Under the pieces are notes generated by a model. The model was given only the letters and a program-made list of their open reading frames with translations, made no database searches and was not told the origin of the DNA. Both the position numbers and the translations under genes were made by a program. A stretch of 58,820 nt of DNA from a virus (lineage: Duplodnaviria; Caudoviricetes), in the IMG/VR virus record IMGVR_UViG_3300042923_001809, positions 1-58,820 of that record; one strand, given 5' to 3'. Below are positions 6,998 to 58,820 of this stretch, in pieces (the stretch's first letter is position 1; each line of letters begins with the position of its first letter).

Positions 6998-8572
6998 TTA
7001 CTGCTCTTGTATTTCTACATCAATCTCTACACATGATTTTAATTCAATCGTTACCTTATCTTCATACACAGTTATTTTCTCTATCAACTTTCTAACCAAC
7101 TGTTCATCATATTCTTCCATCTTGTATTCCTGTTCGCTCAGGAATTCTTCCATTATTGCAATACTCTGCCTTTTACCATGCCGTTCAGCATTGTCCGCCA
7201 GACTATTCTGCTTAAGCTCACGTAACCGGTAAATTTCATCTGCAACTGTATTATAGTCAGATTTTGATATTGCAAGCTGGAGGATTTCCTGTTGTAGTTC
7301 TTCCAGCCTTTTGTCAATTTCAGCAGTATTATTATCATATTCCTCATTCAGAGCCGTGGCAATGTTCTTCTGCAGGATTGACAAGAACTCGTCTCTGCTA
7401 CCAATGACTTTATTGATTGCCTTTATCACAGCCTTATGTAGTGTTTCTTCATTTATAGTCGGCGAAGAACAGTCTGAGCCTTTCTCCTCAAGCCTACTGA
7501 CGCACCGCCAAACAATTGATTTACAACCCCTGTTGTTCCAATGCACTCTCCGGTATATTTCTCCGCACCCACAGTAAACTATTCCTGACAAAGCGTATTT
7601 CCCACTATATATTCGTTTTTTACCAGCTTTGCCTGAATGCAGGTTTGCCCTCCGAGCTATCTCCTCTTGTACCTGCATGAAGATTTCACGCGGTATGATG
7701 GGGTCATGGTTGTTTTCTACATAGTATTGTGGAACTATACCATTGTTGGCCACACGTCTTTTGGAGAGGAAATCCACCGTATATGTCTTTTGAAGCAAGG
7801 CGTCTCCTATATATTTTTCATTCTGTAATATTTTTCTTAACGTTTCCTGTCGCCACTTACTTTTGTTTGCTGCAGTAAGTATCTCATCTGCTTCCAATCC
7901 CCTAGCAATCTGCAGCAGGCTTGCTCCTTCAAGGTATTCCAAATAAATACGCTTTACAACTTCTGCTTCCACCGGTTCAATTATAAGTCGCTTATTTTCA
8001 TCCTTGGTATACCCTAAGAAACGATTGTGATTAATCTGTATTTCACCCTGCTGATATCGGTATTGTATACCTAACTTCACATTTTGACTAAGCGACTGAC
8101 TCTCCTGTTGAGCAAGGGATGCCATGATGGTAAGCATAACCTCCCCCTTAGAGTCCATGCTATTAATATTCTCCTTTTCAAAAAACACGGGGATGTTCTT
8201 ATCTTTCAGCTGTCGTATGTATTTAAGACAATCCAAGGTATTTCTTGCAAAACGGCTAATTGACTTAGTTATTATCATGTCAATTTTACCTGACATACAG
8301 TCTTCAATCATACGGTTGAATTCATCACGTTTCTTGGTATTGGTTCCTGAAATACCGTCATCCGCATAGATACCCGCAAGTTCCCATTCTTGGTTTCCTT
8401 GAATATAGTTTGTATAATGTTCTATCTGAACTTCATAACTGGTAGCCTGCTCTTCACTATCTGTAGAAACGCGGCAGTAGGCTGCTACCCTAAGTTTAGG
8501 CTTTTCTTCCATTTGAATATTGTTGCCAACACGAATTCGTGCCGGTATAACTCTAACACTTTTACTCTGCAT
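6998..8572 (-). CDS. Large serine recombinase (prophage integrase module, third gene)
   Basis: [26 protein letters not shown], Cys cluster. Confidence 0.95.
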
Positions 8573-8990
8573 CCTCTGCCACCTCACATACTATCAAACT
8601 AAAAGCATACTCCGCTTGCATATAAGGATTTTCATACAATTGTTTAGGAACAGGCATTTTGAAACATATTTTAGTTGCTACTCCCCTCATATCATCAGAT
8701 TCCCTTATTCTGCCCAGCATCTTTGCACGCCTCATCCTTTCATCTTCAGTCTTATGAAAAGTATCCTCATCTATCAGCGGAGGATAGAAGCCGTCACCAT
8801 AGTATCGTCTATTTCTCAACATTTTACCTATGGAAGGGTGCGGTTTACATATTCCCGTTTCTTTAGCAACCTCAGCCAAAGAAAGTCCTGAGAGATAAAA
8901 ATTGAACATTTTCTTAATCTGCTCTGCTTCTTTCTCAATGATCATTGCTTTTCCATTCTTAATCTCATAACCAAATGGAGTATGACTCAC
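8562..8990 (-). CDS. Small recombinase-domain protein (middle gene of the triple-recombinase cassette)
   Basis: [26 protein letters not shown] recombinase DNA-binding signature; no catalytic domain. Confidence 0.85.
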
Positions 8991-10553
8991 TTACCGCACC
9001 AACCTTTCTTTTAATGTAATATTACATTTCATTTTAAATCCAATCTCTTCCTGAGAGTGAACGATAATTTTATCAACAAAGCGTTCAAAGATCTCTTCAT
9101 CAAAGTGATTAATATAGGCAGCTTTTGAAGTCCATTTGAGAAGCTGTTCCACTTCCGTAAGAACTGTCATTTCTCCGTTTATGGAATGTGATAAAGCTTT
9201 TTTCTGCTCCATAAGCGTGGCAGCTTCTTTTTTTAGCTCATTACTCTGTGAAACAAACAATGTCTGCTCAAGATATCCTTTGGCCATGAGTGTTGTCAGA
9301 ATGCGGTTACGTTCCAAATTTTCCTCCAGCTTTACTTCCAATTCCTGTATTTGCACTACATTCTCCAAATAGTCTGTTTCTTTTAGGCTCTGCAAAAGTG
9401 GTTTCAAAATGTTTTTATGGCCGTAAATTAGCTTGTTTATCATAATGACGAATGCCCTGTGAATGTCTTCTTCCCGTATAAACTTCATGGAACATTGACA
9501 AATATCCTCAATATGCTTTGAACAGCACCATGCTGCATATTCACTTTTACTGCTGCTATAATGGATCCTGCGTTTAAAAGAGCTGCCACATTCAGAACAT
9601 ATTATCTTTCCTGACAAAGAATAGCGCTTCTGATATTTATTACTTCCCTTCTCTATGTTTTTCTCTTCTCTGCGCTGATTTAACATTTTTTTTACCGTCT
9701 GGAATATCTCATGGCTTATGATTGCTTCATGGTTATTCTTGACTAGGTACTGCTCCTTTTCCCCATGGTTTCTGTGCCGTTTGAAATTCTCATCAGTATA
9801 TTTTTTTTGATATAGTGCATCCCCAACATACTTCTCATTGGTTAGAATACCGTTAATCGTACTAGCATTCCATTGTTTTCCTTTTCTTGGTGGTATGCTT
9901 TCTGCATTCAGATCTTTGGCTATTTTTGCTGTTCCTTTTCCTTCAAGCATTTCAGAAAACATACGTTTTACAATCGTTGCCTGCTCCTCATTTACCACCA
10001 TGCAGCCATTTTTATTTTCATAACCATACGGTGGACAGGACATTTTATATGTCCCATTCTGGAACCGCTTCTGGATCGACCATTTATTGTTACTAGATAT
10101 CGAAACGGATTCATTCTCCGCCAGGCTGCTTAGGATAGTCAGCATTAATTCTCCATCCATTGATTTGGTATTGATGTTTTCCTTTTCAAAATAAATGAAT
10201 ATACCAAGATTAGTCAACTTGCGTACCAGTTCGAGACAATCCATTGTATTTCTTGCAAAACGGCTTATGGACTTTGTTATAATTAAATCAATCTTCCTGC
10301 TTTCACAATCAGATATCAGCCTAGTCAGTTCCGCACGCTTTTCTTTCTTCGTACCCGTTATTCCCTCATCATAATAAATCCCTACATACTCCCAGTCTGA
10401 ATTTGCTTTTATGTAAGTTTCGTAATGATCTCTCTGCGCTTTTAGGCTGATCAATTGTTCATCTGAATCCGTGGAAACACGGCAATAAGCTGCAACCCTA
10501 AGCTTTGGTTTTAGCATGATGGGGTCAGTTGATATTTTCCTTACTATTCTCAC
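8991..10553 (-). CDS. Large serine recombinase (prophage integrase module, first gene)
   Basis: [32 protein letters not shown]. Confidence 0.95.
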   Translation of the reverse strand: MRIVRKISTDPIMLKPKLRVAAYCRVSTDSDEQLISLKAQRDHYETYIKANSDWEYVGIYYDEGITGTKKEKRAELTRLISDCESRKIDLIITKSISRFARNTMDCLELVRKLTNLGIFIYFEKENINTKSMDGELMLTILSSLAENESVSISSNNKWSIQKRFQNGTYKMSCPPYGYENKNGCMVVNEEQATIVKRMFSEMLEGKGTAKIAKDLNAESIPPRKGKQWNASTINGILTNEKYVGDALYQKKYTDENFKRHRNHGEKEQYLVKNNHEAIISHEIFQTVKKMLNQRREEKNIEKGSNKYQKRYSLSGKIICSECGSSFKRRIHYSSSKSEYAAWCCSKHIEDICQCSMKFIREEDIHRAFVIMINKLIYGHKNILKPLLQSLKETDYLENVVQIQELEVKLEENLERNRILTTLMAKGYLEQTLFVSQSNELKKEAATLMEQKKALSHSINGEMTVLTEVEQLLKWTSKAAYINHFDEEIFERFVDKIIVHSQEEIGFKMKCNITLKERLVR

Positions 10554-48745: not shown

Positions 48746-49870
48746 TTATGTTTCCTCCTTAAAATCCTGATTTGCCGATAGGTTCATTGCCGGTCGCTTA
48801 TCGCTGACAGGCACAAGGGTCGGACGCCCTTGTGGTTTGATGATGTAGTCTCCAAGGACTTCATTGAACTTTTTCTTTCCAAGCAGCTTCTCTGCCTCGG
48901 TGATGGTGATAAGAATCTGCCGGTAAATATCACGATACCCTGCTGCCTTCAGTGACGCTGCTACCGCTTCCTCATCGGTATATCTGCGGTTTGAACGTCC
49001 CTCCACCAGTTTGTAACCTGGCCATTCCTTGCCTTCAATTGCTGTTGCCAGGGCATAATCCTTTATTGTATTAGCCCATGAAACCAAATCATCCAGTTTT
49101 TCTAGTATTTCGGCAATCTCCTCATCTGAAAGCAGGGGTGGTAATTCGAACTCAAAAGCTGCAAGCTTTAGCTTTGCTTCTGCTCTTGCTCGGCATTTAA
49201 CCTCCGCCCGACAGAACTGGCAGTGCTCACCCGGAACAAATTCGCCGCCACCTTCAAAGGCAATCTTGGCAGTGGGTATCAGTACTTTTGCCGCCCACAG
49301 ATAAAGTGATTCCTTTGGCACCGTGAATGTGCTTACATTCTCCCGTCTTGGCTGGAATATGGTCATGGACACATTATCGATGTCATAGATGTCATCGAAA
49401 TACTCCAGTGCACCAAGAGCATACAGTTTCATCTGTGGATTTTCCTCAGCTTCAACCAGAATTCCCTGCCCATATTTAAAATCGATGATGTGCATAGTAC
49501 CATCCGCTATAATTAGGCAGTCCCCGGTACCAAAGCCATCGGGTACATAATTTGAAAAGTTCAATTTCTGCTCAATAAGCACAAGGGGATCCGGGCATTG
49601 TAGTTTAACCTTGGCAAGCTGCTCAAGAATAAAGCTTACATAATCATCCGTAAGTGCATCCATCTCATCACAGTCATACTCTGATACTGGTTTCTTGGAG
49701 CGCATCTTCAGGGCTTTCCTCAATTTGTGTTCTGCGAGAGCATGCGCAGCGGAGCCTTCTTCTGCTGCTTTGCTGGCAGTATCCTTAAACTCCTGTTCCA
49801 ATCTGGCTGATGGAGTGCATACCATCCAGCGATGGGCGGAGGATGCTGATAAAATTGCATGACTGCTCAT
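48746..49870 (-). CDS. DUF2800 PD-(D/E)xK (Cas4-like) nuclease
   Basis: HAILSAS..HRW..C, FGTGD, IDFKYG, HCQFC....C. Confidence 0.9.
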   Translation of the reverse strand: MSSHAILSASSAHRWMVCTPSARLEQEFKDTASKAAEEGSAAHALAEHKLRKALKMRSKKPVSEYDCDEMDALTDDYVSFILEQLAKVKLQCPDPLVLIEQKLNFSNYVPDGFGTGDCLIIADGTMHIIDFKYGQGILVEAEENPQMKLYALGALEYFDDIYDIDNVSMTIFQPRRENVSTFTVPKESLYLWAAKVLIPTAKIAFEGGGEFVPGEHCQFCRAEVKCRARAEAKLKLAAFEFELPPLLSDEEIAEILEKLDDLVSWANTIKDYALATAIEGKEWPGYKLVEGRSNRRYTDEEAVAASLKAAGYRDIYRQILITITEAEKLLGKKKFNEVLGDYIIKPQGRPTLVPVSDKRPAMNLSANQDFKEET

Positions 49871-50468: not shown

Positions 50469-50912
50469 TTACAAAAGTTTATTTAAAGCTTTATAAGCTG
50501 TATGTAATCGATGAGATATAGCCGAGTGGTCCACTCCCTCCCGTTTTGCATAGTCATTTACAGATACTCCGTTAAAATAAATAGCAGTAATAAGTTCCCT
50601 CTGCTTCGGCTTCAGCCTGCCCACCGTATTCCGGATATGCTGCCTTGTATATTTACTCTCTAAGTCAGCGGCTATTTCAGCACTCTCAGAACAAATGCTA
50701 TTTTTAAATTCAAAAGCATCACGTGATAAGTGAGGATTGGTATCTGCTTGTCCATCAATATAGTCATAACCATCCAGTGAATTATGACGGCGAGTTTCTT
50801 TCCGGTTGACGTTATATTCTTTCCTGTCAAGTTCGAGGATGATTTCTCCCCACTCCTCTGAAACCTCAATTTCATGAGTTTGTCCAGTTACTGATGTGTA
50901 CCTGATTTTCAT
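50469..50912 (-). CDS. Phage sigma-70 region 4 / ECF-like factor
   Basis: L.PKQRELI.AIYFNG.SV.DYA.REGV..SAISHRL; ATG after AGGAG. Confidence 0.85.
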   Translation of the reverse strand: MKIRYTSVTGQTHEIEVSEEWGEIILELDRKEYNVNRKETRRHNSLDGYDYIDGQADTNPHLSRDAFEFKNSICSESAEIAADLESKYTRQHIRNTVGRLKPKQRELITAIYFNGVSVNDYAKREGVDHSAISHRLHTAYKALNKLL

Positions 50913-50915
50913 ACT

Positions 50916-51125
50916 GGTATCTCCTTTCTTTGCTGCCGGACAAGCCGGAAACAGGAGATACCTGAAAAAAGGCACAAAAAAATAAGACCTTGGCAACACT
51001 GTTTCCAGCGTTACCCCGGTCTTGGGTGGTGGCTTCTATATCGCTAATTCTACGGGAGAATCGTGAGCGGCGTCCTTGCGTAGAAGGTTGTACCAGGCGA
51101 TATATGCCCCTATTGACTCAGTCGG
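50916..51125 (-). ncRNA. Candidate structured cis-regulatory leader RNA (nested stems, attenuator, RBS-sequestering hairpin)
   Basis: Stems 51037-44/51097-104 and 51048-54/51079-85; GAAA-capped terminator 50976-51023; anti-SD 50953-62 pairing with 50916-25. Confidence 0.6.
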
Positions 51126-51139
51126 TAATTCTTGCTCTA

Positions 51140-51322
51140 TTAATTATTTTTGGAATTTGCTTTCGCTTTCACTGCCCTCTGGGTATTAAAATTAATATGA
51201 TAAATCTTACCACATTCATGGCACCGGCATGATACCTTAATATCAGCCGGCTTATCTGCAAATGTCTTTCCTGTCCCACACCAGGGGCAGGTTATTACGA
51301 TAGGAAACTTGATATCATGCAT
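51140..51322 (-). CDS. Small Zn-finger (CxxC..CxxC) protein
   Basis: CPWCG..CHECG; GGAG RBS. Confidence 0.75.
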   Translation of the reverse strand: MHDIKFPIVITCPWCGTGKTFADKPADIKVSCRCHECGKIYHINFNTQRAVKAKANSKNN

Positions 51323-51467
51323 TTACAATCTCTCCTTTTAGTAGTCCCTATGTAAGCAAGTTTGTTAACACCATGAGAATAAAATAGCAGGACAATTTCA
51401 TCCTGCGTAATCTGCATTTTATATCTGTACAGTTTTTATCTTTTAGCTTTTGTCATTGGTTGGTGAT

Positions 51468-51878
51468 TCAATGGCATCCCTCCTCCTGCATTTTCTTCAT
51501 GCCACAAATCTGATCAATAAAATCTTGCCACTGAGTATTAGAGATATTCAGATCCCGTGCTTTTCGTAATGCCACACGAGCTATCTCTGTCTTTCCGATA
51601 TAATCTACTAAATCTGGATAAATATTATTTCTACTCTTACCTGCAAGATCGTAGAAATAATAGGAATCATCCCCTTCGATACACAATACCTCGGTCATTT
51701 TTTCGAGATATTTCTCCGGTGCATAGCGGTTTCCTTTTTCAATATCGCTCAGATATGCCGGTGTCATATCCAGTTCCAAAGCTAGTCCACGTATTGACTT
51801 GCCGAGCGCCTCTCTGCGTGCTTTTACATATTCTCCAAATGAACAATGACATTCATTTGGTACTAATATATTCATCAT
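51468..51878 (-). CDS. XRE-family HTH repressor
   Basis: FGEYVKARRE..GKSIRGLA..L.MTPAYLSDIEKGNR. Confidence 0.92.
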   Translation of the reverse strand: MMNILVPNECHCSFGEYVKARREALGKSIRGLALELDMTPAYLSDIEKGNRYAPEKYLEKMTEVLCIEGDDSYYFYDLAGKSRNNIYPDLVDYIGKTEIARVALRKARDLNISNTQWQDFIDQICGMKKMQEEGCH

Positions 51879-51903: not shown

Positions 51904-51952
51904 ATGTAAGCTTTTATGCTTACATTGTACTACTTGTTTATATGTTTGTCAA
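51904..51952 (-). promoter_or_regulatory. XRE gene promoter with an overlapping palindromic operator
   Basis: TTGACA-17-TACAAT; ATGTAAGC-N6-GCTTACAT at 51904-51925, with a related site at 51350-51371. Confidence 0.75.
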
Positions 51953-52069
51953 TATTTAACATTTTTATGTTGTCAATAATCTACCGAAAATACATTTACA
52001 TTGTTTCACAAAAATCTATAATAAATTAGCTTTGTCCCATAATGGGAATATTTTACGTTTATTTTAGAA

Positions 52070-52098
52070 ATAAAGCCAATCGTCATGATTGGCTTTAT
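52070..52098 (-). terminator. Terminator after the S8 peptidase gene
   Basis: ataaagccaatc..gattggctttat inverted repeat. Confidence 0.7.
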
Positions 52099-52101
52099 CC
52101 T

Positions 52102-54324
52102 TTATCTTACAGTAACTCTTACCGGTTGAACTGGTGTAAAACGTCCTGCTGTTTCTTTTATTATTTCTGAATACAAATTTCCTGCTTCCGTTAAATCCTC
52201 AACTGTTATTACCAATGAATATGGTATTTCGTCATCATCCGCAACTCCCCATCGAGTAAACAACTCAAGCCATATTTCCCAACTTCCAGCGTCAAAACTT
52301 GAGAAGGTATTTGAAAAATGGAAGCATGAATCCCACTTATTACGATTATCTGCAACCGGTGGATTATCTACTACATTATTACCATTTGAATTTAATCTAT
52401 GTATAGATGTTGTAATGTAAGCTGCAGAATATTCACTTCCTTTTGTTCTATCTACTGGTGGTTGAGCTAAACACGTAACAGTAACCTTAACTTTTGATTC
52501 ACCCCGTTTTACCTTTGCCTCGGCAATTACCGTTGGAATATGAAATTTAACTCTTTTTTTTGTTAAACGGTTTAAGCTTCCTGCGTGTAAGAAAGACACT
52601 TTATTCTCAGAAGAATACATGCTATTTCTTGGTGATGATAGTCCTCTTCCATATAAATTTCCGGCAAAATCTGCCTCTTCTTGTGTTATATCTTCCTTTG
52701 TAAAAAGTGGAATTGCTCCATTATATAGTAAAGCCTGTGCCAGACCTACATCTTCATTAGGCACTGTTAGTAGTATTTCTGCAAGGTCACCTGCTACCGT
52801 TGGCGTTGTAAAACTCGTTCCTGGCAAAGCACAATAACCGGTTGATGAAAGGCACAACGCGTATGGATCACTTGGTGTCATACCATTTTTAAATTGAGTA
52901 GCTCCATAGGCAACAATATCCGGTTTATAAAAACCGCAAAATCCCGGGCCACGTCTTGAATAAGGAGCAATGTCTTTTTCCTTACTTACACTACCAGGGT
53001 GTGTTTGACCTACGACTGAGCCCACTGTAATTGCAAGCATAGCATCTGCAGGTTCAGCAATCTTGCTGTCGTCATCATCCAAAATGTCTTTCAGGTTATT
53101 TTCCGAAAAACCTAATTGATGATTTCCTGCCGATACAACGAATTTAACACCATATTTTCTAGTAAGCATATCCAGTTCACATCCTAATATACTCATTTCG
53201 TCCCCATCGATTGGCTGACTTGCATTGTATGAAAAGTTATAAATTTTTGCTACTGATGCAAAAGTATCAACAGCCTCTCTTATTCTTTTGATGACAACAT
53301 TTGATGGTGTTTTGTCGCTATCAATTATATTAGCATCAATAATTTTTGCTCTTGGTGTTAAATAAGGGTCTGGCAAATGAAATCCAAGCTCTTCGAAAGC
53401 CGCTCTACTCGCAACAGGAGTACCATGATTTCCAAAGAAAGAGGGTACGCTACATCCTGTTGCTCTCCAATGGACAGGTACGATACCAGCTAAACCTGCT
53501 GGTAAATTAACGCCATCATCCAATATAACAATTGCAGGTAAATCTTCAATTTTAATACCTGGATCTAGTTGCAGTCCTTTTCCTAATGGAATAGACGCAC
53601 TAGGAGCGTAGACTTGAAAAAAAGATGTTTCCTCGATTCTGTAGATTGCTTGATCATCTGCAATTTCATTAAAACTTGCCATAGTAACCATTGCTCTGAT
53701 AATTGCTGTTCCATCAGTTAACCGATACGGTTCACCTTGGAGAGTTCCATTTTTACTTACAATTTTCTCAGTCAATTTAGTCTGAGCCCTTTGTTGGATA
53801 TCCTCTCCTAAATTTGGTAATAACATCATTTGAACGTCTACGGAAATCCGCTCTTTGTTTTCTTCAAGGTAACGCGCTAAAGACGATGATTGTTTATCAA
53901 CAGATCTAAACGGCTCAAATCCATTAATATACTGAAAATCATGTACTGTTCCTTGATCTCTGTATCTATTAATTCGCCCCTGTAAGCTATCAAAAATGTC
54001 TCTTTTTGCGGAAACAACAGCATGATTTTTATCTCTTACTGCATTTATTTTTAAGCCTTCATCTTCCATTAATTTTTTACGGTTAGAAAAATCCTCACCA
54101 TCCTGGAGCACTACCTTAAAGGTCATTATATCTTCATCACTTAAAGAATCTCCTGCTCTTAACCTTTGAAATACATCAAATATTTCCTGCAGTCCCTGAG
54201 ATAATTTATTGCCATGTTCTGCATAATCTAATCCATACTCCTTATTTCGGCCGGTTGGCTTTTTTATTATATCCTTAATTTCTTCTGATGGTATCCATAA
54301 ATGTCGTTTTTGTTCATCATTCAT
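52102..54324 (-). CDS. ietS: S8 subtilisin-like serine protease (IetS)
   Basis: ILDDGV, NHGT.VAS, SAGN, GTSF; overlaps the AAA gene. Confidence 0.9.
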   Translation of the reverse strand: MNDEQKRHLWIPSEEIKDIIKKPTGRNKEYGLDYAEHGNKLSQGLQEIFDVFQRLRAGDSLSDEDIMTFKVVLQDGEDFSNRKKLMEDEGLKINAVRDKNHAVVSAKRDIFDSLQGRINRYRDQGTVHDFQYINGFEPFRSVDKQSSSLARYLEENKERISVDVQMMLLPNLGEDIQQRAQTKLTEKIVSKNGTLQGEPYRLTDGTAIIRAMVTMASFNEIADDQAIYRIEETSFFQVYAPSASIPLGKGLQLDPGIKIEDLPAIVILDDGVNLPAGLAGIVPVHWRATGCSVPSFFGNHGTPVASRAAFEELGFHLPDPYLTPRAKIIDANIIDSDKTPSNVVIKRIREAVDTFASVAKIYNFSYNASQPIDGDEMSILGCELDMLTRKYGVKFVVSAGNHQLGFSENNLKDILDDDDSKIAEPADAMLAITVGSVVGQTHPGSVSKEKDIAPYSRRGPGFCGFYKPDIVAYGATQFKNGMTPSDPYALCLSSTGYCALPGTSFTTPTVAGDLAEILLTVPNEDVGLAQALLYNGAIPLFTKEDITQEEADFAGNLYGRGLSSPRNSMYSSENKVSFLHAGSLNRLTKKRVKFHIPTVIAEAKVKRGESKVKVTVTCLAQPPVDRTKGSEYSAAYITTSIHRLNSNGNNVVDNPPVADNRNKWDSCFHFSNTFSSFDAGSWEIWLELFTRWGVADDDEIPYSLVITVEDLTEAGNLYSEIIKETAGRFTPVQPVRVTVR

Positions 54325-55465
54325 TATCTAACACCCCCTTATATTTTTTTACTTGATAGTCTAGCGTATTATGTGATATTCCCATAGCCTTTGCTGCGGC
54401 TCTCAATGAAACGCCGCGCTCCAACATCTCACAAATTACTTTCATTGATTCATCTCCGCTATCTGAGAATTTTGTTAATTGTTGAATTAATATAGCCATC
54501 ACATCTTCTGTTTTCAGTTTCTGATCAATTAAATATTTTTTAGCTGCTGCTGTCATCAATTCTTCAAGCTGTGCTCCACTTATTCCTTCTGAAACTTTTG
54601 CAATCGCTTTACAATCAACCTTTGCCTCAATTCCATACTTTTCAATACCTTTTTGTATTAATGTTTTTCTTTGCTCTTCATTTGGTAATTCTAGATTAAT
54701 TGTAACATTAAATCTACGCCAAATAGCTGGATCCAATAAGTGTTCATGATTTGTAGCAGCAATCAAAAAAACATTAGCTGGCATATTATCAAAATTTTGA
54801 AGCAAAGTTGTAACTACACGCTTTAGCTCTCCTAGTTCGTTACTATCATCACGTTTTTTTGCAATGGCATCAAACTCATCCAAGAATAATATTATTCTCT
54901 GATTTCTTACTGAATCAAAAACTTTCCTTAGATTTGTACTTGTTTGCCCTAAATAGGATGAAACCAATCCATCTAAACGTACGTATGCTATTGGTAAATC
55001 TAACTCATGTCCTAATGCATATGCTGTAATAGTTTTTCCACAACCTGGCGGACCACACAATAAAACTCTATTTACTGGTGTCATACTATGCTTCAATAGA
55101 TTTGCAGCATTCTTTTGTTCTGACATAATTTGTTCCAATATTTTTTTTTGGTTTTCTGGCAAGATAACATCATTAAAAGATACATTAGGTCTAACTACTT
55201 CATACAATTCTAATAAGCTATCTTTATCTCTTGGTGTTGCTGTCTGTGATGATTGGGCAGAAAACCCTGATATACTTCCGCCAATATCAGATGATGCATT
55301 TCCACTCTTTTTTCTATTTTCATAAGCCCGCCTAAGCCGTGATGCTGTTGGAACATTTCCTTTTTTCTCTTCATCACTCACCAATTTATTTATCGCTTCT
55401 AAGAATTCTCGTTCATCACCGCTACAATGAGCTATAATTAAATTTTCTATAAGCTCTGATTTCAT
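54317..55465 (-). CDS. ietA: AAA+ ATPase (IetA) with a C-terminal HTH
   Basis: GPPGCGKT, FLDEFDAI, AATN, LDPAIWRRF; GVSLRAAAKAMGISHNTL. Confidence 0.9.
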   Translation of the reverse strand: MKSELIENLIIAHCSGDEREFLEAINKLVSDEEKKGNVPTASRLRRAYENRKKSGNASSDIGGSISGFSAQSSQTATPRDKDSLLELYEVVRPNVSFNDVILPENQKKILEQIMSEQKNAANLLKHSMTPVNRVLLCGPPGCGKTITAYALGHELDLPIAYVRLDGLVSSYLGQTSTNLRKVFDSVRNQRIILFLDEFDAIAKKRDDSNELGELKRVVTTLLQNFDNMPANVFLIAATNHEHLLDPAIWRRFNVTINLELPNEEQRKTLIQKGIEKYGIEAKVDCKAIAKVSEGISGAQLEELMTAAAKKYLIDQKLKTEDVMAILIQQLTKFSDSGDESMKVICEMLERGVSLRAAAKAMGISHNTLDYQVKKYKGVLDNE

Positions 55466-55487
55466 ATTGCACTCTCCTATATATCAT

Positions 55488-55573
55488 TTTTTCGTACACT
55501 TTCAGACATTTGCAATATTATAGTATCATTTCAGTAATCATATGTCAATATTTTTCGGACACATTCGGACATT
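55488..55573 (-). promoter_or_regulatory. ietAS promoter flanked by 23-bp direct repeats
   Basis: TTGACA-17-TACTAT; repeats 55488-55510 and 55551-55573 (20/23 identical). Confidence 0.65.
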
Positions 55574-56010
55574 ATTGTTTATTGCACAAAAATAGCAATG
55601 GTCTTAATAACCACCTACTATATGTATAACTAACGGAAACCAATGTCTCCATCTGTACACTTTCTTATAAAATATCATAAAATGAGCACTCCTGTATAAT
55701 TTGATCCACCACTCAGTTTGATAATCGGTCACTTTATTATAATTTGTAAAGGATACTCGCCAAGATAGTTTTTATTAAGAGTGTACCACAGCTAACGCAA
55801 CTTACTAAGTAATGCGTAGTTAAGGCAAATAAAGATAAGTCTAGCTAAATATGTCATACACAAATTATTAGTAGCACTGGCTCAGTTCGTACCGGACAGC
55901 TGTTCTCTGAATGACAAGATTATTCAATAGCATAGAAATCAGAAAACTAATATTACTCTATCATTATATACGCTACCAGATCTGCCAATATTTCTTATCG
56001 CCATATGAAC

Positions 56011-56733
56011 TCACTTAATAAAAATAAATATATACTCGTGTGCCAACAACAAAAAGGAACTATGTTGTTTCTCCCAAAACTTTGTTGATTTACAATTATG
56101 TTGCTCTTTTATAACTATTTCCTTAGACTTAAATTTTGCATTTAGAAAACAATTCATGACTTGGAAACCTAATGGAACAACACAACCTTTACTGCGGATG
56201 TCACCCATCATAACCGCACAAAGTCTTCCCTTTTTTAATACTCGATATGCCTCTCTCGCAACATTATTCATTTGATGTATAAATTCTTCTACTCCTAATA
56301 ACGACAGATCTCCATCTAGACTTTGGCTATAATTAATGATATCTGCATATGGTGGATGCGTGCAAATAAGATCCATACTCTCATTTGTAATAAATGACAA
56401 ATTGCGTGCATCGCCTTTTTTAACATTTTGCTGGGTTTTAGTATTGCATTGGAAATTAAGATTTTGGTTAGATAATAAAATAGATTGCTCATTGATATCG
56501 ACACCAATGGCATTACGATCAAGTAGTTTTGCTTCGACTAATGTAGTACCACTTCCTAAGAATTGATCTAGAATCCATTCATTTGGTTGACTATAACGAA
56601 GAATAATATTTCTTGGTACATATGGGGACCAATTTCCTCTGTATACCCCACAATGAGTAGCCCAATCACCTCTTTCAGGAAATGACCAAACAGTTGTTGA
56701 CTCCAACTCAAATTTATTTGGTTCTAATTTTAT
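56011..56733 (-). CDS. DNA methyltransferase (HPPY-type amino-MTase), probable ATA start
   Basis: LDQFLGSGTT, THPPY; AAGGAGGT upstream of an in-frame ATA at 56733. Confidence 0.85.
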   Translation of the reverse strand: MKLEPNKFELESTTVWSFPERGDWATHCGVYRGNWSPYVPRNIILRYSQPNEWILDQFLGSGTTLVEAKLLDRNAIGVDINEQSILLSNQNLNFQCNTKTQQNVKKGDARNLSFITNESMDLICTHPPYADIINYSQSLDGDLSLLGVEEFIHQMNNVAREAYRVLKKGRLCAVMMGDIRSKGCVVPLGFQVMNCFLNAKFKSKEIVIKEQHNCKSTKFWEKQHSSFLLLAHEYIFIFIK

Positions 56734-56844
56734 ATCAATACCTCCTTACACTATATTTTATCTGCATTATACTACTAAACACATAATAATACTAGTAAAT
56801 TTTTCCTCTTTCCCTCTTATTAAATCATAGAAATCATTTTACAG

Positions 56845-56894
56845 AAAAAAGAGACAAGCCATCATTCACCTACTTGATGACTTATCTCATTTTT
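56845..56894 (-). terminator. Terminator after the AlwI-family gene
   Basis: gagacaagccatca..tgatgacttatctc imperfect inverted repeat with an A-run. Confidence 0.5.
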
Positions 56895-56987
56895 GATTTC
56901 TTTTCTTCCTTTTCATTATTAGAAGTAATTTTGACACTAATAAACAAATTTATATTTTCCGATAATCTTACAATCAATCCAAATCTT

Positions 56988-58820
56988 TTAAGCTTGTATC
57001 ATTTTATTCTTTATCAATTCTGAAATCATAAAATCAATATCTCGTTTCCACTCTGGTGCTTCTCTTCCGTACTTTAAATCAAAACACGCAGTGAATAAAC
57101 TTAATAATTTGTCAGGATGCACAGTATTATTCTCAAATAAACTTTTAAAAAATGATGCAAATTGACTTAATGTAAATGGTACAATTCTCAATGCCATTTT
57201 TTTGTCATCTTGAGTATACCAAACCCCAATTCGAAAAGTTTCTGCTGTATTTGAATCTATTTTATTAGCAATAAACATTCCATAAACAGGCTTATTATTA
57301 TTTAAAACAAGATCTGCTACATGTCGACGAACTGGTTCACCCTCCATGGCCTCCTGCCTTGAATTTGTTGACATAGTAACTTCAACTACAATAATATACT
57401 CATCAAATTCAAAAATCATGTCTGGTCCGCCGCCTGGTGCTGTTCCTACAGGCAAATAATCTTGATCTATACTAAATCCCCTGGCTTCATATGGCTTATT
57501 AGATATATGATTTATTGCTAAAAAAGCTCGCCATAAAATCCATTCTAAGTATGCTGCAGCCTCAGACTTAGGAACTTTAATTGTATAATCTTCATTCAAC
57601 TCTTTTTCCTGTCCATTATTAACAACTAACAAATTCATATACTCATAAATTTCTTTCCACTCATTATATTGATTTTTAGCGTATTCCTCCTCTTTGAACT
57701 TATCAATGTCCCTCTTTAAGCTGTTTCGTACCATATTTATATTAGCTGCTGAATCAAGAGGTACATCTGGAATAGTATATTGGATATTATATGTAGTCAA
57801 CTCCGAAACCAGATCTTGTAAAACTTGATTTGCTGTATCAATATTGTCCGTTGGTAACGGCGCACCATTACATAATTGCTTGTATCGCTCAATTAACGGC
57901 TCTGAACTTGTAACTTTCTTACTAAGTTCAAAAGCTAAAGTTCGATACTCTGGTACAATACAGATACCTCTTCCTGCTCTCTTGACAATTCCTGAAGATA
58001 CAATATATCGTAGATTCATATCAGCATAATCACTAAAGTTTACTTTTAGTTTTAAGTAATGTTCCCATGCTAAATCGATCAAATCTCGATCATACTTTTT
58101 CTTATTATTTGCTGCCATCCTATTTTTTCTTATATCCAAAACCTTCTCAACAACTTTATCAACATCATAATTAGGATTAGTTGTTTGAACACATATTGCA
58201 AATTCAATAAAATTAATCCTTGTATCTCCTGTAATTTCCTCCAACTTAAACATCACAGTAAGTACCCATAGAAGCGGTGAATAACTAAGTTCCTCGGTTA
58301 GCTTTTCCATTGGTACAACTAACCCTCTCAAAAAGCACTCTTGTTGTGCAGAAATAGTATCGGCATTATAAAATGTTTTGCCAATAGGTGTTATGTCATC
58401 CACTGGACCCAATTCAGTTTGAGAAAAACCATCTTTTAATGTTACTTCTGGATATGCAAATCCATATTTATTAAACATAAGTCTATATTTACGAGTTATA
58501 CTAGCATCTTGATCTTTATTTAAGTCACCACCTATTTCACCTGTATGGAATAGTAGTTTTTTAAAAGCCACCTGATCTTTTGGTTCACGTAATTTCCCTA
58601 CTAAATTTGACTCGACATATACTTTAAATCCACTGGGTATACGCCATGGATTTCTCATTCCTGTATTCCCAATTAGCCAAATATCTATTGGTTCTTTTAC
58701 AACCCTGGTCTCTTCAACTGTTTTTTCCTTAGTTTTTTCGCCATCCTTATATTTAATTTTCTTTGATTCTGTTACCTGATAAACATCCTGTCCAATTTTA
58801 ATTATTTTTGCCTTCGCCAT
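56988..58820 (-). CDS. AlwI-family type IIS restriction/nicking endonuclease
   Basis: GNTGMRNPWR, APGGGPDM, VEVTM..QEAMEGEPVRRH. Confidence 0.88.
   Translation of the reverse strand: MAKAKIIKIGQDVYQVTESKKIKYKDGEKTKEKTVEETRVVKEPIDIWLIGNTGMRNPWRIPSGFKVYVESNLVGKLREPKDQVAFKKLLFHTGEIGGDLNKDQDASITRKYRLMFNKYGFAYPEVTLKDGFSQTELGPVDDITPIGKTFYNADTISAQQECFLRGLVVPMEKLTEELSYSPLLWVLTVMFKLEEITGDTRINFIEFAICVQTTNPNYDVDKVVEKVLDIRKNRMAANNKKKYDRDLIDLAWEHYLKLKVNFSDYADMNLRYIVSSGIVKRAGRGICIVPEYRTLAFELSKKVTSSEPLIERYKQLCNGAPLPTDNIDTANQVLQDLVSELTTYNIQYTIPDVPLDSAANINMVRNSLKRDIDKFKEEEYAKNQYNEWKEIYEYMNLLVVNNGQEKELNEDYTIKVPKSEAAAYLEWILWRAFLAINHISNKPYEARGFSIDQDYLPVGTAPGGGPDMIFEFDEYIIVVEVTMSTNSRQEAMEGEPVRRHVADLVLNNNKPVYGMFIANKIDSNTAETFRIGVWYTQDDKKMALRIVPFTLSQFASFFKSLFENNTVHPDKLLSLFTACFDLKYGREAPEWKRDIDFMISELIKNKMIQA

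Follow-up and report, generated by a model that had tools for sequence, protein, structure and literature searches.

On the minus strand of a 58,820-nucleotide (nt) IMG/VR provirus record (IMGVR_UViG_3300042923_001809; hereafter the whole stretch is called the window), a 232-nt gap (51141..50910) separates a zinc-ribbon open reading frame (ORF) of 60 amino acids (aa) from a 147-aa ORF whose AUG starts at 50912. The locus raises the question of whether the RNA of this gap controls the regulator encoded behind it. Lysis-lysogeny control in phages of anaerobic Firmicutes is, to our knowledge, almost unknown, and their hosts include abundant Clostridia of gut, soil and digesters. A preliminary description, made from the sequence alone, had proposed that a structured leader gates a sigma factor here by an attenuator plus a sequestered ribosome-binding site. 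As that description held, the leader before the regulator gene was found to be structured and strand-specific, to contain a terminator and to sequester its ribosome-binding site; an antiterminator helix that covaries across lineages was found as well. From these structures we infer the gating itself. Probably, the window derives from a temperate Clostridia phage, the gap is the intercistronic leader of its first operon, and this leader keeps an early regulator silent by two layers, an attenuator and a translation lock.

Structure of the leader

Folding of positions 50900-51140 (minus strand) with RNAfold gave a minimum free energy (MFE) of -86.3 kcal/mol, in a structure that held all of the elements named previously. 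Dinucleotide shuffles of the same region averaged -61.6 +/- 5.0 kcal/mol (z = -4.92), and 0 of 200 were as stable. The opposite strand folded at -79.8 kcal/mol (z = -3.26; 2 of 200 shuffles), with the terminator stem broken at wobble positions. The wobbles said to work on one strand only were indeed strand-specific: two terminator pairs (U.G and G.U) were present in 8/8 close relatives and correspond to C.A mismatches on the other strand. Taken in isolation, the terminator, the Shine-Dalgarno (SD) hairpin and the 5' domain had energies of -26.0, -21.0 and -25.7 kcal/mol, respectively. The elements of the leader were as follows.

51115..51128, minus strand: 5' core UUACCGACUGAGUC, antiterminator 5' strand, either invariant or covarying across 12 sequences
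51028..51110, minus strand: P0 stem of the MFE structure, GGGGC (51110..51106) with GCC-A-CC (51033..51028), with a bulged A
51036..51105, minus strand: apical insert P1-P2-P3, containing the nested stems described previously, lineage-specific
50984..51023, minus strand: putative intrinsic terminator hairpin, its 5' strand (51021..51011) common to the antiterminator helix
50976..50983, minus strand: A + U7 tract of the terminator, kept in 8/8 close relatives
50938..50955, minus strand: segment X (CUGUUUCCGGCUUGUCC), part of the SD hairpin and complementary to the terminator 5' strand and loop
50899..50976, minus strand: lock helix, long and interrupted, with the core GGUAUCUCCU/AGGAGAUACC

The P0 stem enclosed the apical insert, in which P1 (UAUAUCGC/GCGAUAUA, 51104..51097 with 51044..51037) and P2 (UUCUACG/CGUAGAA, 51085..51079 with 51054..51048) were located on the minus strand where they had been reported. 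The hairpin AAGACC-GG-GGUAACGCUG-GAAA-CAGUGUUGCC-AA-GGUCUU was likewise present (51023..50984), followed by A + U7 at 50983..50976; its 18-bp interrupted stem, with the energy given above and the ensuing UU-A-U7, is predicted to act as an intrinsic terminator. The strands GGUAUCUCCU and AGGAGAUACC paired perfectly (50962..50953 with 50925..50916), ending 3 nt ahead of the AUG.

The full leader was common to eight sequences: the window and the loci L016, L270, L017, L268, L300, L020 and L209 (L numbers denote the related loci collected for comparison). In their alignment, 95.3% of 553 cells paired. The apical stems contained five compensatory pairs, one in P1 and four in P2, which was reached by 1 of 500 shuffles; P3 showed changes from G.U to G-C. 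The terminator and the SD helix were invariant among the eight and uninformative there. L305 retained a short P1 only, and L076, L312 and L106 were without P1-P3 altogether, and all four kept the core UAC[C/U]GACUGAG[U/C]C, the 5-bp P0 with its bulged A (GGGGC/GCC-A-CC) and the terminator. The nested stems are thus a lineage-specific apical insert on P0, and do not qualify as a conserved sensor, being absent or partial in these four loci.

Relatives were sought with a 15-mer from the P3 loop, which occurred in 119 metagenome stretches (80 loci listed) and, in a separate viral scan, in 43 stretches, mostly as chance matches; among the matches listed, five passed a flank-motif filter, namely one false (L162), three known contigs and one new locus (L209). 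A gapped pattern of the conserved junction found 14 viral stretches, of which L305 and L312 were useful and new, and L306 was the L076 contig. No match was returned when the leader was compared by blastn with 50,697 phage records.

Other pairings were tried and rejected. An outer stem, GAGCAAGAA:UUUUUGYGC, was paired in 84.8% of cells with no double changes and was dropped. The P1 strands as SD/anti-SD mimics and GCCAC:GUGC as an extension of the terminator failed across relatives, and a small hairpin GAC-UGA-GUC was lost in L076-type sequences.

Antiterminator and core-P0-terminator motif

The preliminary description was right that a terminator is present, and missed the antiterminator helix that makes it an attenuator. 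With the terminator 3' strand masked, folding brought out a helix between the 5' core (UUACC-GA-CUG-A-GUC) and the terminator 5' strand GAC-CGG-GGUAA (GACCGGGGUAA), in which UUACC pairs with GGUAA, CUG with CGG and GUC with GAC. Across 12 sequences, all 132 of the 132 cells of its 11 pairs were standard. Three pairs had changed on both sides, in seven cells: U-A/A-U; U-A/C-G through a U.G intermediate; and C-G/U.G/U-A. In none of 500 shuffles was the percentage of paired cells, the number of double-change cells or the covariation score as high, and slid controls, with the partner moved by 1-3 columns, paired in 30-52% of cells. An alternative helix with covariation support thereby lies on the 5' strand of the terminator, as in an attenuator.

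A covariance model, R1, was built from these 12 sequences, with the terminator as the modelled state. At E<1e-4 it recovered all 12 seeds and added six loci scoring 35-44 bits (L315, L072, L109, L043, L133 and L125), which brought the motif to 18 examples in 10 lineages; no match was obtained in L137 or L084 (E<=1). P1-P3 were missing in L076, L312, L106, L315, L072, L043 and L125 and reduced in L305 and L109, with core, P0 and terminator kept. The 18-sequence alignment was fitted to R1 and is hence biased towards the model; in it, 26 of 44 pairs had changed on both sides, including 17/18 of the terminator and 3/5 of P0 (0/500 shuffles). For the antiterminator, which R1 excludes, 175 of 196 cells were paired (89.3%) with 15 double-change cells, and 0/500 shuffles reached its pairing, double-change cells or covariation score. 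Covariation, proposed earlier as a check, was accordingly present in the apical stems (8 sequences), the antiterminator (12) and the terminator and P0 (18). An alignment-free comparison over the 10 lineages agreed: the core bound its own terminator strand with a mean of -10.0 kcal/mol vs. -6.85 kcal/mol for mismatched partners (permutation p ~2e-5), and the best or near-best partner of each core was its own terminator strand.

Folding of nascent RNA placed the two helices in order. The antiterminator was the MFE structure for RNA ending at nt 131, 136 or 140; at nt 150 the upper terminator stem had invaded, and at nt 158 the terminator was complete. The duplex energies were -10.0 kcal/mol for the antiterminator and -25.7 kcal/mol for the terminator.

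R1 was run over 151 genomes from the family to which the closest isolate belongs and matched two of them, including that isolate. The motif was seen only in prophage or viral contexts, beside small ORFs. At L305:10822-10936 (minus strand) the module followed a homologous zinc-ribbon ORF and preceded a different regulator, a 110-aa helix-turn-helix (HTH) protein starting VNTNERRNEIM, and the SD of that gene also lay in a short hairpin. At L106:979-1025 a second strong terminator-like hairpin was found ~25 nt upstream of the core, so that the motif there is bracketed by two terminators.

Proposed translation lock over the start of the regulator gene

The lock helix extended beyond the part recognized before, UGUGCCU-U-UUUUCA (50976..50963) pairing with UGAAAA..AGGUACA (50911..50899), so that the UG of the AUG and codons 2-5 were covered against a second U-run. 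Because of this extension, the helix buried not only the SD, AGGAG (50925..50921), but also the start codon (50912..50910) and codons 2-5. The unpaired probability of GGAG in the ensemble was <=0.001. The ~60 nt from the terminator to the AUG were entirely taken up by the lock helix, and no sigma-70-type promoter was found in this interval. An in-frame GTG start at 50999 was considered and rejected, as it falls within the terminator and homologues begin at MKI.

Homologous genes and their leaders

Protein-guided scans yielded 47 genome loci, all from Clostridia/Bacillota, and 78 viral loci. The best genome locus was that of an Anaerocolumna isolate, with 95% identity of the regulator. We used 110 of the 125 loci plus the window, which gave 94 distinct leaders; seven loci were dropped because the match did not start from residue 1 (L036, L042, L046, L053, L058, L062 and L116) and eight for a short upstream region or as duplicates (L063, L088, L095, L099, L118, L120, L126 and L129).

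The 94 leaders fell into many unrelated sequence classes with a recurring architecture. Controls were mechanical ORFs of >=80 aa from the same loci, not curated genes, and 92 leaders had a recognizable SD core. This core was fully paired in the MFE structure of -75..+3 in 69/92 leaders vs. 18/92 control ORF starts (Fisher 3e-14), an SD stem of >=8 bp was present in 89/92 vs. 33/88, and the median free energy of the SD hairpin was -17.6 vs. -3.0 kcal/mol (Mann-Whitney 2e-13), these p-values overstating independence because the leaders are kin. Further, a hairpin with a U-run starting 40-110 nt before the AUG was found in 86/94 leaders vs. 36/308 controls. At least 30 sequence clusters were represented among the 70 leaders that entered later tests.

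One class of leaders (L019, L026, L027, L033, L067, L108, L127, L128 and L133-L138) carried AAUCCGC(C)AGAGC just before the terminator, with two possible partners, a copy right after the U-run (CUACGGAUU) or the anti-SD arm (GCUCCUGCGGAUU). Relative to L027, L031 had a C-to-U change that retained a G.U pair.

Known RNA families

No match to Rfam 15 was found over the whole window at gathering thresholds, and at E<=10 the region 50700-51500 gave only chance matches to eukaryotic miRNA, lncRNA and snoRNA families. No description of the element was found among the papers listed by the literature searches. The suggestion that the riboregulator is undescribed therefore stands, no known Rfam family having been matched. 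The class of mechanism, attenuation plus SD sequestration, is classical; the element itself is absent from Rfam, where the closest entry, DUF2800 RNA, represents a different sequence family.

The Rfam scan also covered 39 related loci together with the window's own stretch. DUF2800 RNA (RF02960, Cis-reg; gathering score 60.2) was found directly before the homologue of the regulator gene in L137 (995-1157, AUG 1201, 128.4 bits) and in L084 (668-822, AUG 863, 135.3 bits). RF02960 was not found in the window at gathering, nor in 50700-51500 at E<=10, nor in L001 at E<=1. DUF2800 RNA is reportedly a candidate cis-regulatory motif from Weinberg and colleagues' work of 2017. The DUF2800 motif had 0 occurrences in the main text of that article (Weinberg et al., 2017), and no function for it was found in the literature.

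Other observations were made in the same scan. In L137 and L084 the apex of the terminator-like hairpin of DUF2800 RNA bore an SD-like run (CGGAAUGGAGGA in L137, CCGAAACGGAG in L084), which was complementary to the anti-SD arm of a hairpin past the Rfam model and co-varied with that arm between the two loci. The gut-2 RNA (RF02990) occurred ~280 nt upstream of the region-4 gene in L093:878-925, L121:872-919 and L123:514-561, and pemK RNA (RF02913) downstream of it in one locus, L052:1355-1435.

Upstream zinc-ribbon ORF

The gene that precedes the leader is as follows.

51140..51322, minus strand: small zinc-ribbon ORF, 60 aa, CPWC...CHEC, with its stop 11 nt before the antiterminator 5' strand

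Against Pfam, its product reached no cut-off, with sub-threshold Zn-ribbon matches only. A scripted search found an upstream CxxC...CxxC ORF in 8/10 lineages of the motif, and in 6/10 its stop lay within -5..+11 nt of the antiterminator strand: the distance was 11 nt in the window, 10 in L017, 8 in L315, 7 in L305 and 4 in L072, with an overlap of 5 in L125. This search found no such ORF in L043 or L109; in L043 the last codons of an 80-aa, Cys-rich ORF contained the core.

Two candidate triggers of the leader can be named. The preferred candidate, by analogy, is the zinc-ribbon protein itself, which may act on the leader as Com of phage Mu acts on mom mRNA. The alternative candidate is the ribosome finishing the zinc-ribbon ORF, whose stop abuts the antiterminator strand; judged by the textbook ribosome footprint, termination would place the ribosome over the core in the lineages with a close stop.

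Proposed mechanism and alternative explanations

In the mechanism that we favor, the emerging RNA would first pair its 5' core with GAC-CGG-GGUAA, closing the P0 stem with its variable apical hairpin. Once made, the terminator 3' strand would capture GAC-CGG-GGUAA into a much more stable hairpin, followed by U7. As the terminator outcompetes the antiterminator, the default would be termination at U7, and read-through would need a factor that holds the weak antiterminator while the polymerase crosses the U-tract. The lock helix, with the SD, the AUG and the first codons buried in it, would form the second layer and keep leaky read-through transcripts untranslated until it is opened. Since the leader stands at the entry to the whole early/replication operon, its opener probably starts the lytic programme.

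Several results weigh against this mechanism or its proposed triggers. The antiterminator is far weaker than the terminator and may be irrelevant without a stabilizer. The number of its pairs with a change on both sides (three) was equalled by 60/500 shuffles of the 12 sequences, which means few independent events, and by 314/500 shuffles of the 18; the compensatory events were few and mostly set two or three lineages apart. When 30 leader clusters were tested for an antiterminator with a generic energy measure, the result was negative (own -12.5 vs. -12.65 kcal/mol, p = 0.63), and the claim is consequently restricted to the core-P0-terminator motif family. With the antiterminator enforced, the SD was still locked, so that one signal is not obviously the opener of both layers; either two inputs would be needed, or a single factor acting on both. 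For the upstream ORF, the zinc-ribbon protein of the window scored 9.2 bits against Zn_ribbon_Com (PF10122; cut-off 22.9, E = 1.1), and this family was not among the matches of six relatives' proteins at E<=5. A protein-language Atlas placed 'Mu-like prophage protein Com' clusters at 0.93 with 158 shared features, which is in the range of chance. The zinc-ribbon ORF ended 41 and 105 nt before the core in L076 and L106, respectively, a non-CxxC ORF ended ~43 nt before it in L109, and in the wider gene family only 22/88 upstream ORFs were of the CxxC...CxxC type.

Part of this evidence would also suit passive insulation, in which the hairpin constitutively terminates the maintenance transcript of the XRE and zinc-ribbon genes, the SD helix blocks stray read-through, and the regulator is expressed from a promoter not recognizable by sequence. 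Fold-back inhibition in IS10 makes stray read-through transcripts untranslatable in this way. The stability of the terminator exceeds that of the antiterminator by 16 kcal/mol, the generic antiterminator test was negative as described above, and the motif is more closely associated with the zinc-ribbon ORF, at its 3' end, than with the regulator gene: upstream of the regulator in L072, L043 and L109, it is separated from it by 200-310 nt that include additional leader sequence, and in L305 the gene behind it is a different one. However, covariation between core and terminator and lineage-matched complementarity are unexpected for a plain terminator, and the ~60 nt in which a promoter would have to lie are filled by the lock helix and contain no sigma-70-type promoter; we consider insulation unlikely. 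Quite improbable, in our judgment, is control by RNA-RNA pairing, in which the terminator 5' strand and loop would pair with segment X and open the lock, either in cis following read-through or in trans, as part of the abundant terminated leader, other leader classes using an SD mimic instead. The terminator 5' strand with its GAAA loop (GGGUAAC-G-CUGGAAACAG) was complementary to CUGUUUCCGGC-UUGUCC in the SD hairpin, and the resulting duplex of 17 bp, three of them wobbles, had -23.0 kcal/mol, reached by 3/1000 shuffles in the window (3/1000 in L106 and 22/1000 in L076). Across 30 clusters, the 5' element bound its own anti-SD arm with -18.5 vs. -13.7 kcal/mol for mismatched arms (permutation p ~5e-5); 21/30 clusters, including both loci with DUF2800 RNA, ranked <=5, and in L137 and L084 the mimic tracked the anti-SD arm. 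Yet the class of the window ranked 22/30 in this cross-class test, L305 was not significant (177/1000 shuffles), the enforced state, which frees most of the SD, lay 28 kcal/mol above the MFE in the window, and a 4-nt GAAA loop would be a poor site of nucleation.

The order of a structured 5' domain before a choice between antiterminator and terminator resembles that of a metabolite-sensing riboswitch with the 5' domain as its aptamer, and the P3 loop was invariant in 8/8 close relatives. The nested stems were nevertheless dispensable in relatives that keep the switch, so a conserved multi-helix aptamer was not found; the conserved part is short (core, 5-bp P0 with one bulged A, and terminator), and the occurrence in prophage or viral contexts next to small ORFs only, in 2/151 genomes of the family and with no Rfam match, makes such a sensor very improbable. 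We give equally little credence to the inverted repeats being operators in DNA, bound by the XRE protein or the region-4 protein, rather than RNA helices. Helix arms are by definition inverted repeats, and two DNA-binding proteins are encoded nearby, but the terminator keeps its G.U/U.G pairs in 8/8 sequences, and such pairs, which also occur in the antiterminator and in P2/P3, are mismatches in DNA. Moreover, the two strands fold differently, the arm spacings range from 4 to ~100 nt, and the U-tract and the position of the SD are sensible only in RNA.

The two-layer mechanism could be taken further. Tentatively, and with considerable doubt on our part, the dissimilar leaders, DUF2800 RNA included, might be one phage decision device of attenuator plus SD lock, in which a 5' element, either an antiterminator strand or an SD mimic, contends for the strands closing the two locks, the classes with a zinc-ribbon ORF being operated by a Com-like protein or by the ribosome. 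If so, the small upstream ORF would be a timer that releases the master early regulator in a widespread group of Clostridia prophages, and DUF2800 RNA would gain a first function.

Regulator gene and genomic context

The remaining genes around the leader are as follows.

50469..50912, minus strand: predicted regulated gene, 147 aa, assigned with Pfam, PHROG and PDB profiles
51468..51878, minus strand: XRE-type HTH gene, upstream of the leader on the same strand

The 147-aa protein had a sigma-70 region 4 HTH at its C-terminus and, at its N-terminus, a domain without known function. The Pfam match (Sigma70_r4_2 / r4) covered residues 93-143 with 28 bits vs. a cut-off of 25.7, PDB profile matches were confined to region 4, and the best PHROG was a family of unknown function. 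Region 2, which together with region 4 marks the sigma-70 family, was not found in the protein, and every NCBIfam sigma model stayed under its cut-off. The name sigma factor is therefore not retained; going by these profiles, the protein is a region-4-type regulator.

The prophage genes run in one direction, with the regulator gene at the head. On the minus strand, the XRE HTH gene, the zinc-ribbon ORF, the leader and the regulator gene were followed by two small PHROG genes; by genes for a DUF2800 nuclease, an Enc34-type single-stranded DNA-binding protein, PolA, VapE and SNF2; and by genes for terminase, capsid, amidase and two serine recombinases. The latter (529 and 520 aa; 6998..10553) are large, in tandem, and located at the opposite end of the prophage.

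A strong promoter-like site, TTGACA-17-TACAAT, was present ahead of the XRE gene (51952..51924, minus strand), and a terminator-like hairpin after it (51406..51387, minus strand). Promoter-like sites stood back to back in 51924..52098, the plus-strand site being TTTACA-16-TATAAT (51995..52022). A 13-bp hairpin at 52070..52098, ~50 nt past the plus-strand site, also ends the S8 peptidase gene of the other strand. The region 51924..52098 possibly serves as a switch and yields a short divergent transcript. Pairing of such a small transcript (from the site at 51995..52022) with the leader was considered and rejected, because 126/300 shuffles were equally complementary.

An AAA ATPase gene (55465..54317) and an S8 subtilase gene (54324..52102) formed an overlapping pair upstream of the first prophage operon, and past them lay a DNA methylase fragment and an AlwI-type restriction endonuclease gene. 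The stretch 52102..58820 resembles a defence island, beside or within the provirus record.

Four RNA libraries, available as assembled contigs in which transcript ends and levels are not readable and DNA may be included, contained sequence from this region, the gaps in their coverage being uninformative. Contig X20 spanned 51029-51689, bridging the 3' part of the XRE gene, the zinc-ribbon ORF and the 5' domain, and contig X21 spanned 50843-50990.

Comparison with known systems

Classical attenuators, whether ribosome-coupled (trp/pyr type) or governed by BglG/SacY at the ribonucleic antiterminator (RAT) or by PyrR, terminate by default, and an external factor stabilizes the alternative. The window leader resembles them in sharing one strand between a weak early helix and a strong terminator, and resembles the ribosome-coupled ones also in an upstream ORF whose stop abuts the antiterminator strand. 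It differs from them in that the product of this ORF is a folded protein of 60 aa instead of a leader peptide carrying regulatory codons, and in having a second, translational lock; no RAT or PyrR-site consensus was found, no search aimed at one having been made. The lock in turn has counterparts in the rpoS leader and in IS10 fold-back inhibition, where the SD lies in a long helix with an upstream anti-SD arm. The likeness is that of a regulator gene's SD held by such an arm; unlike those systems, the window leader comes from the phage of a Gram-positive anaerobe, and no Hfq-type small RNA partner is known here.

Among catalogued RNAs, DUF2800 RNA shares with the window leader a terminator-like hairpin with a U-run and then an SD-sequestering hairpin. 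The window leader also has the location of DUF2800 RNA, upstream of a prophage operon with a DUF2800 gene (49870..48746), which lies ~1 kb downstream in the same operon. The 5' hairpin of the DUF2800 RNA consensus, with a CUGAUCA loop, is absent from the window leader. What had been a guess from a single sequence has become a defined motif of core, P0 stem and a choice between antiterminator and terminator, the prediction being testable by compensatory mutation.

The functional likeness to the com-mom operon of phage Mu bears on the candidate trigger. Com is described as binding a hairpin that adjoins the translation inhibition structure of mom mRNA, thereby exposing the start signals (PMC6483171). 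As in the window, a small CxxC...CxxC protein is encoded there immediately before a hairpin in which the start signals of the following gene are buried (PMC6483171). The two differ in that Com homology is not detectable here and the Mu scheme has no attenuator, so that the likeness is functional only. If the zinc-ribbon ORF proved to be the operator of the leader, Mu Com would have a Gram-positive equivalent whose action extends to transcription attenuation.

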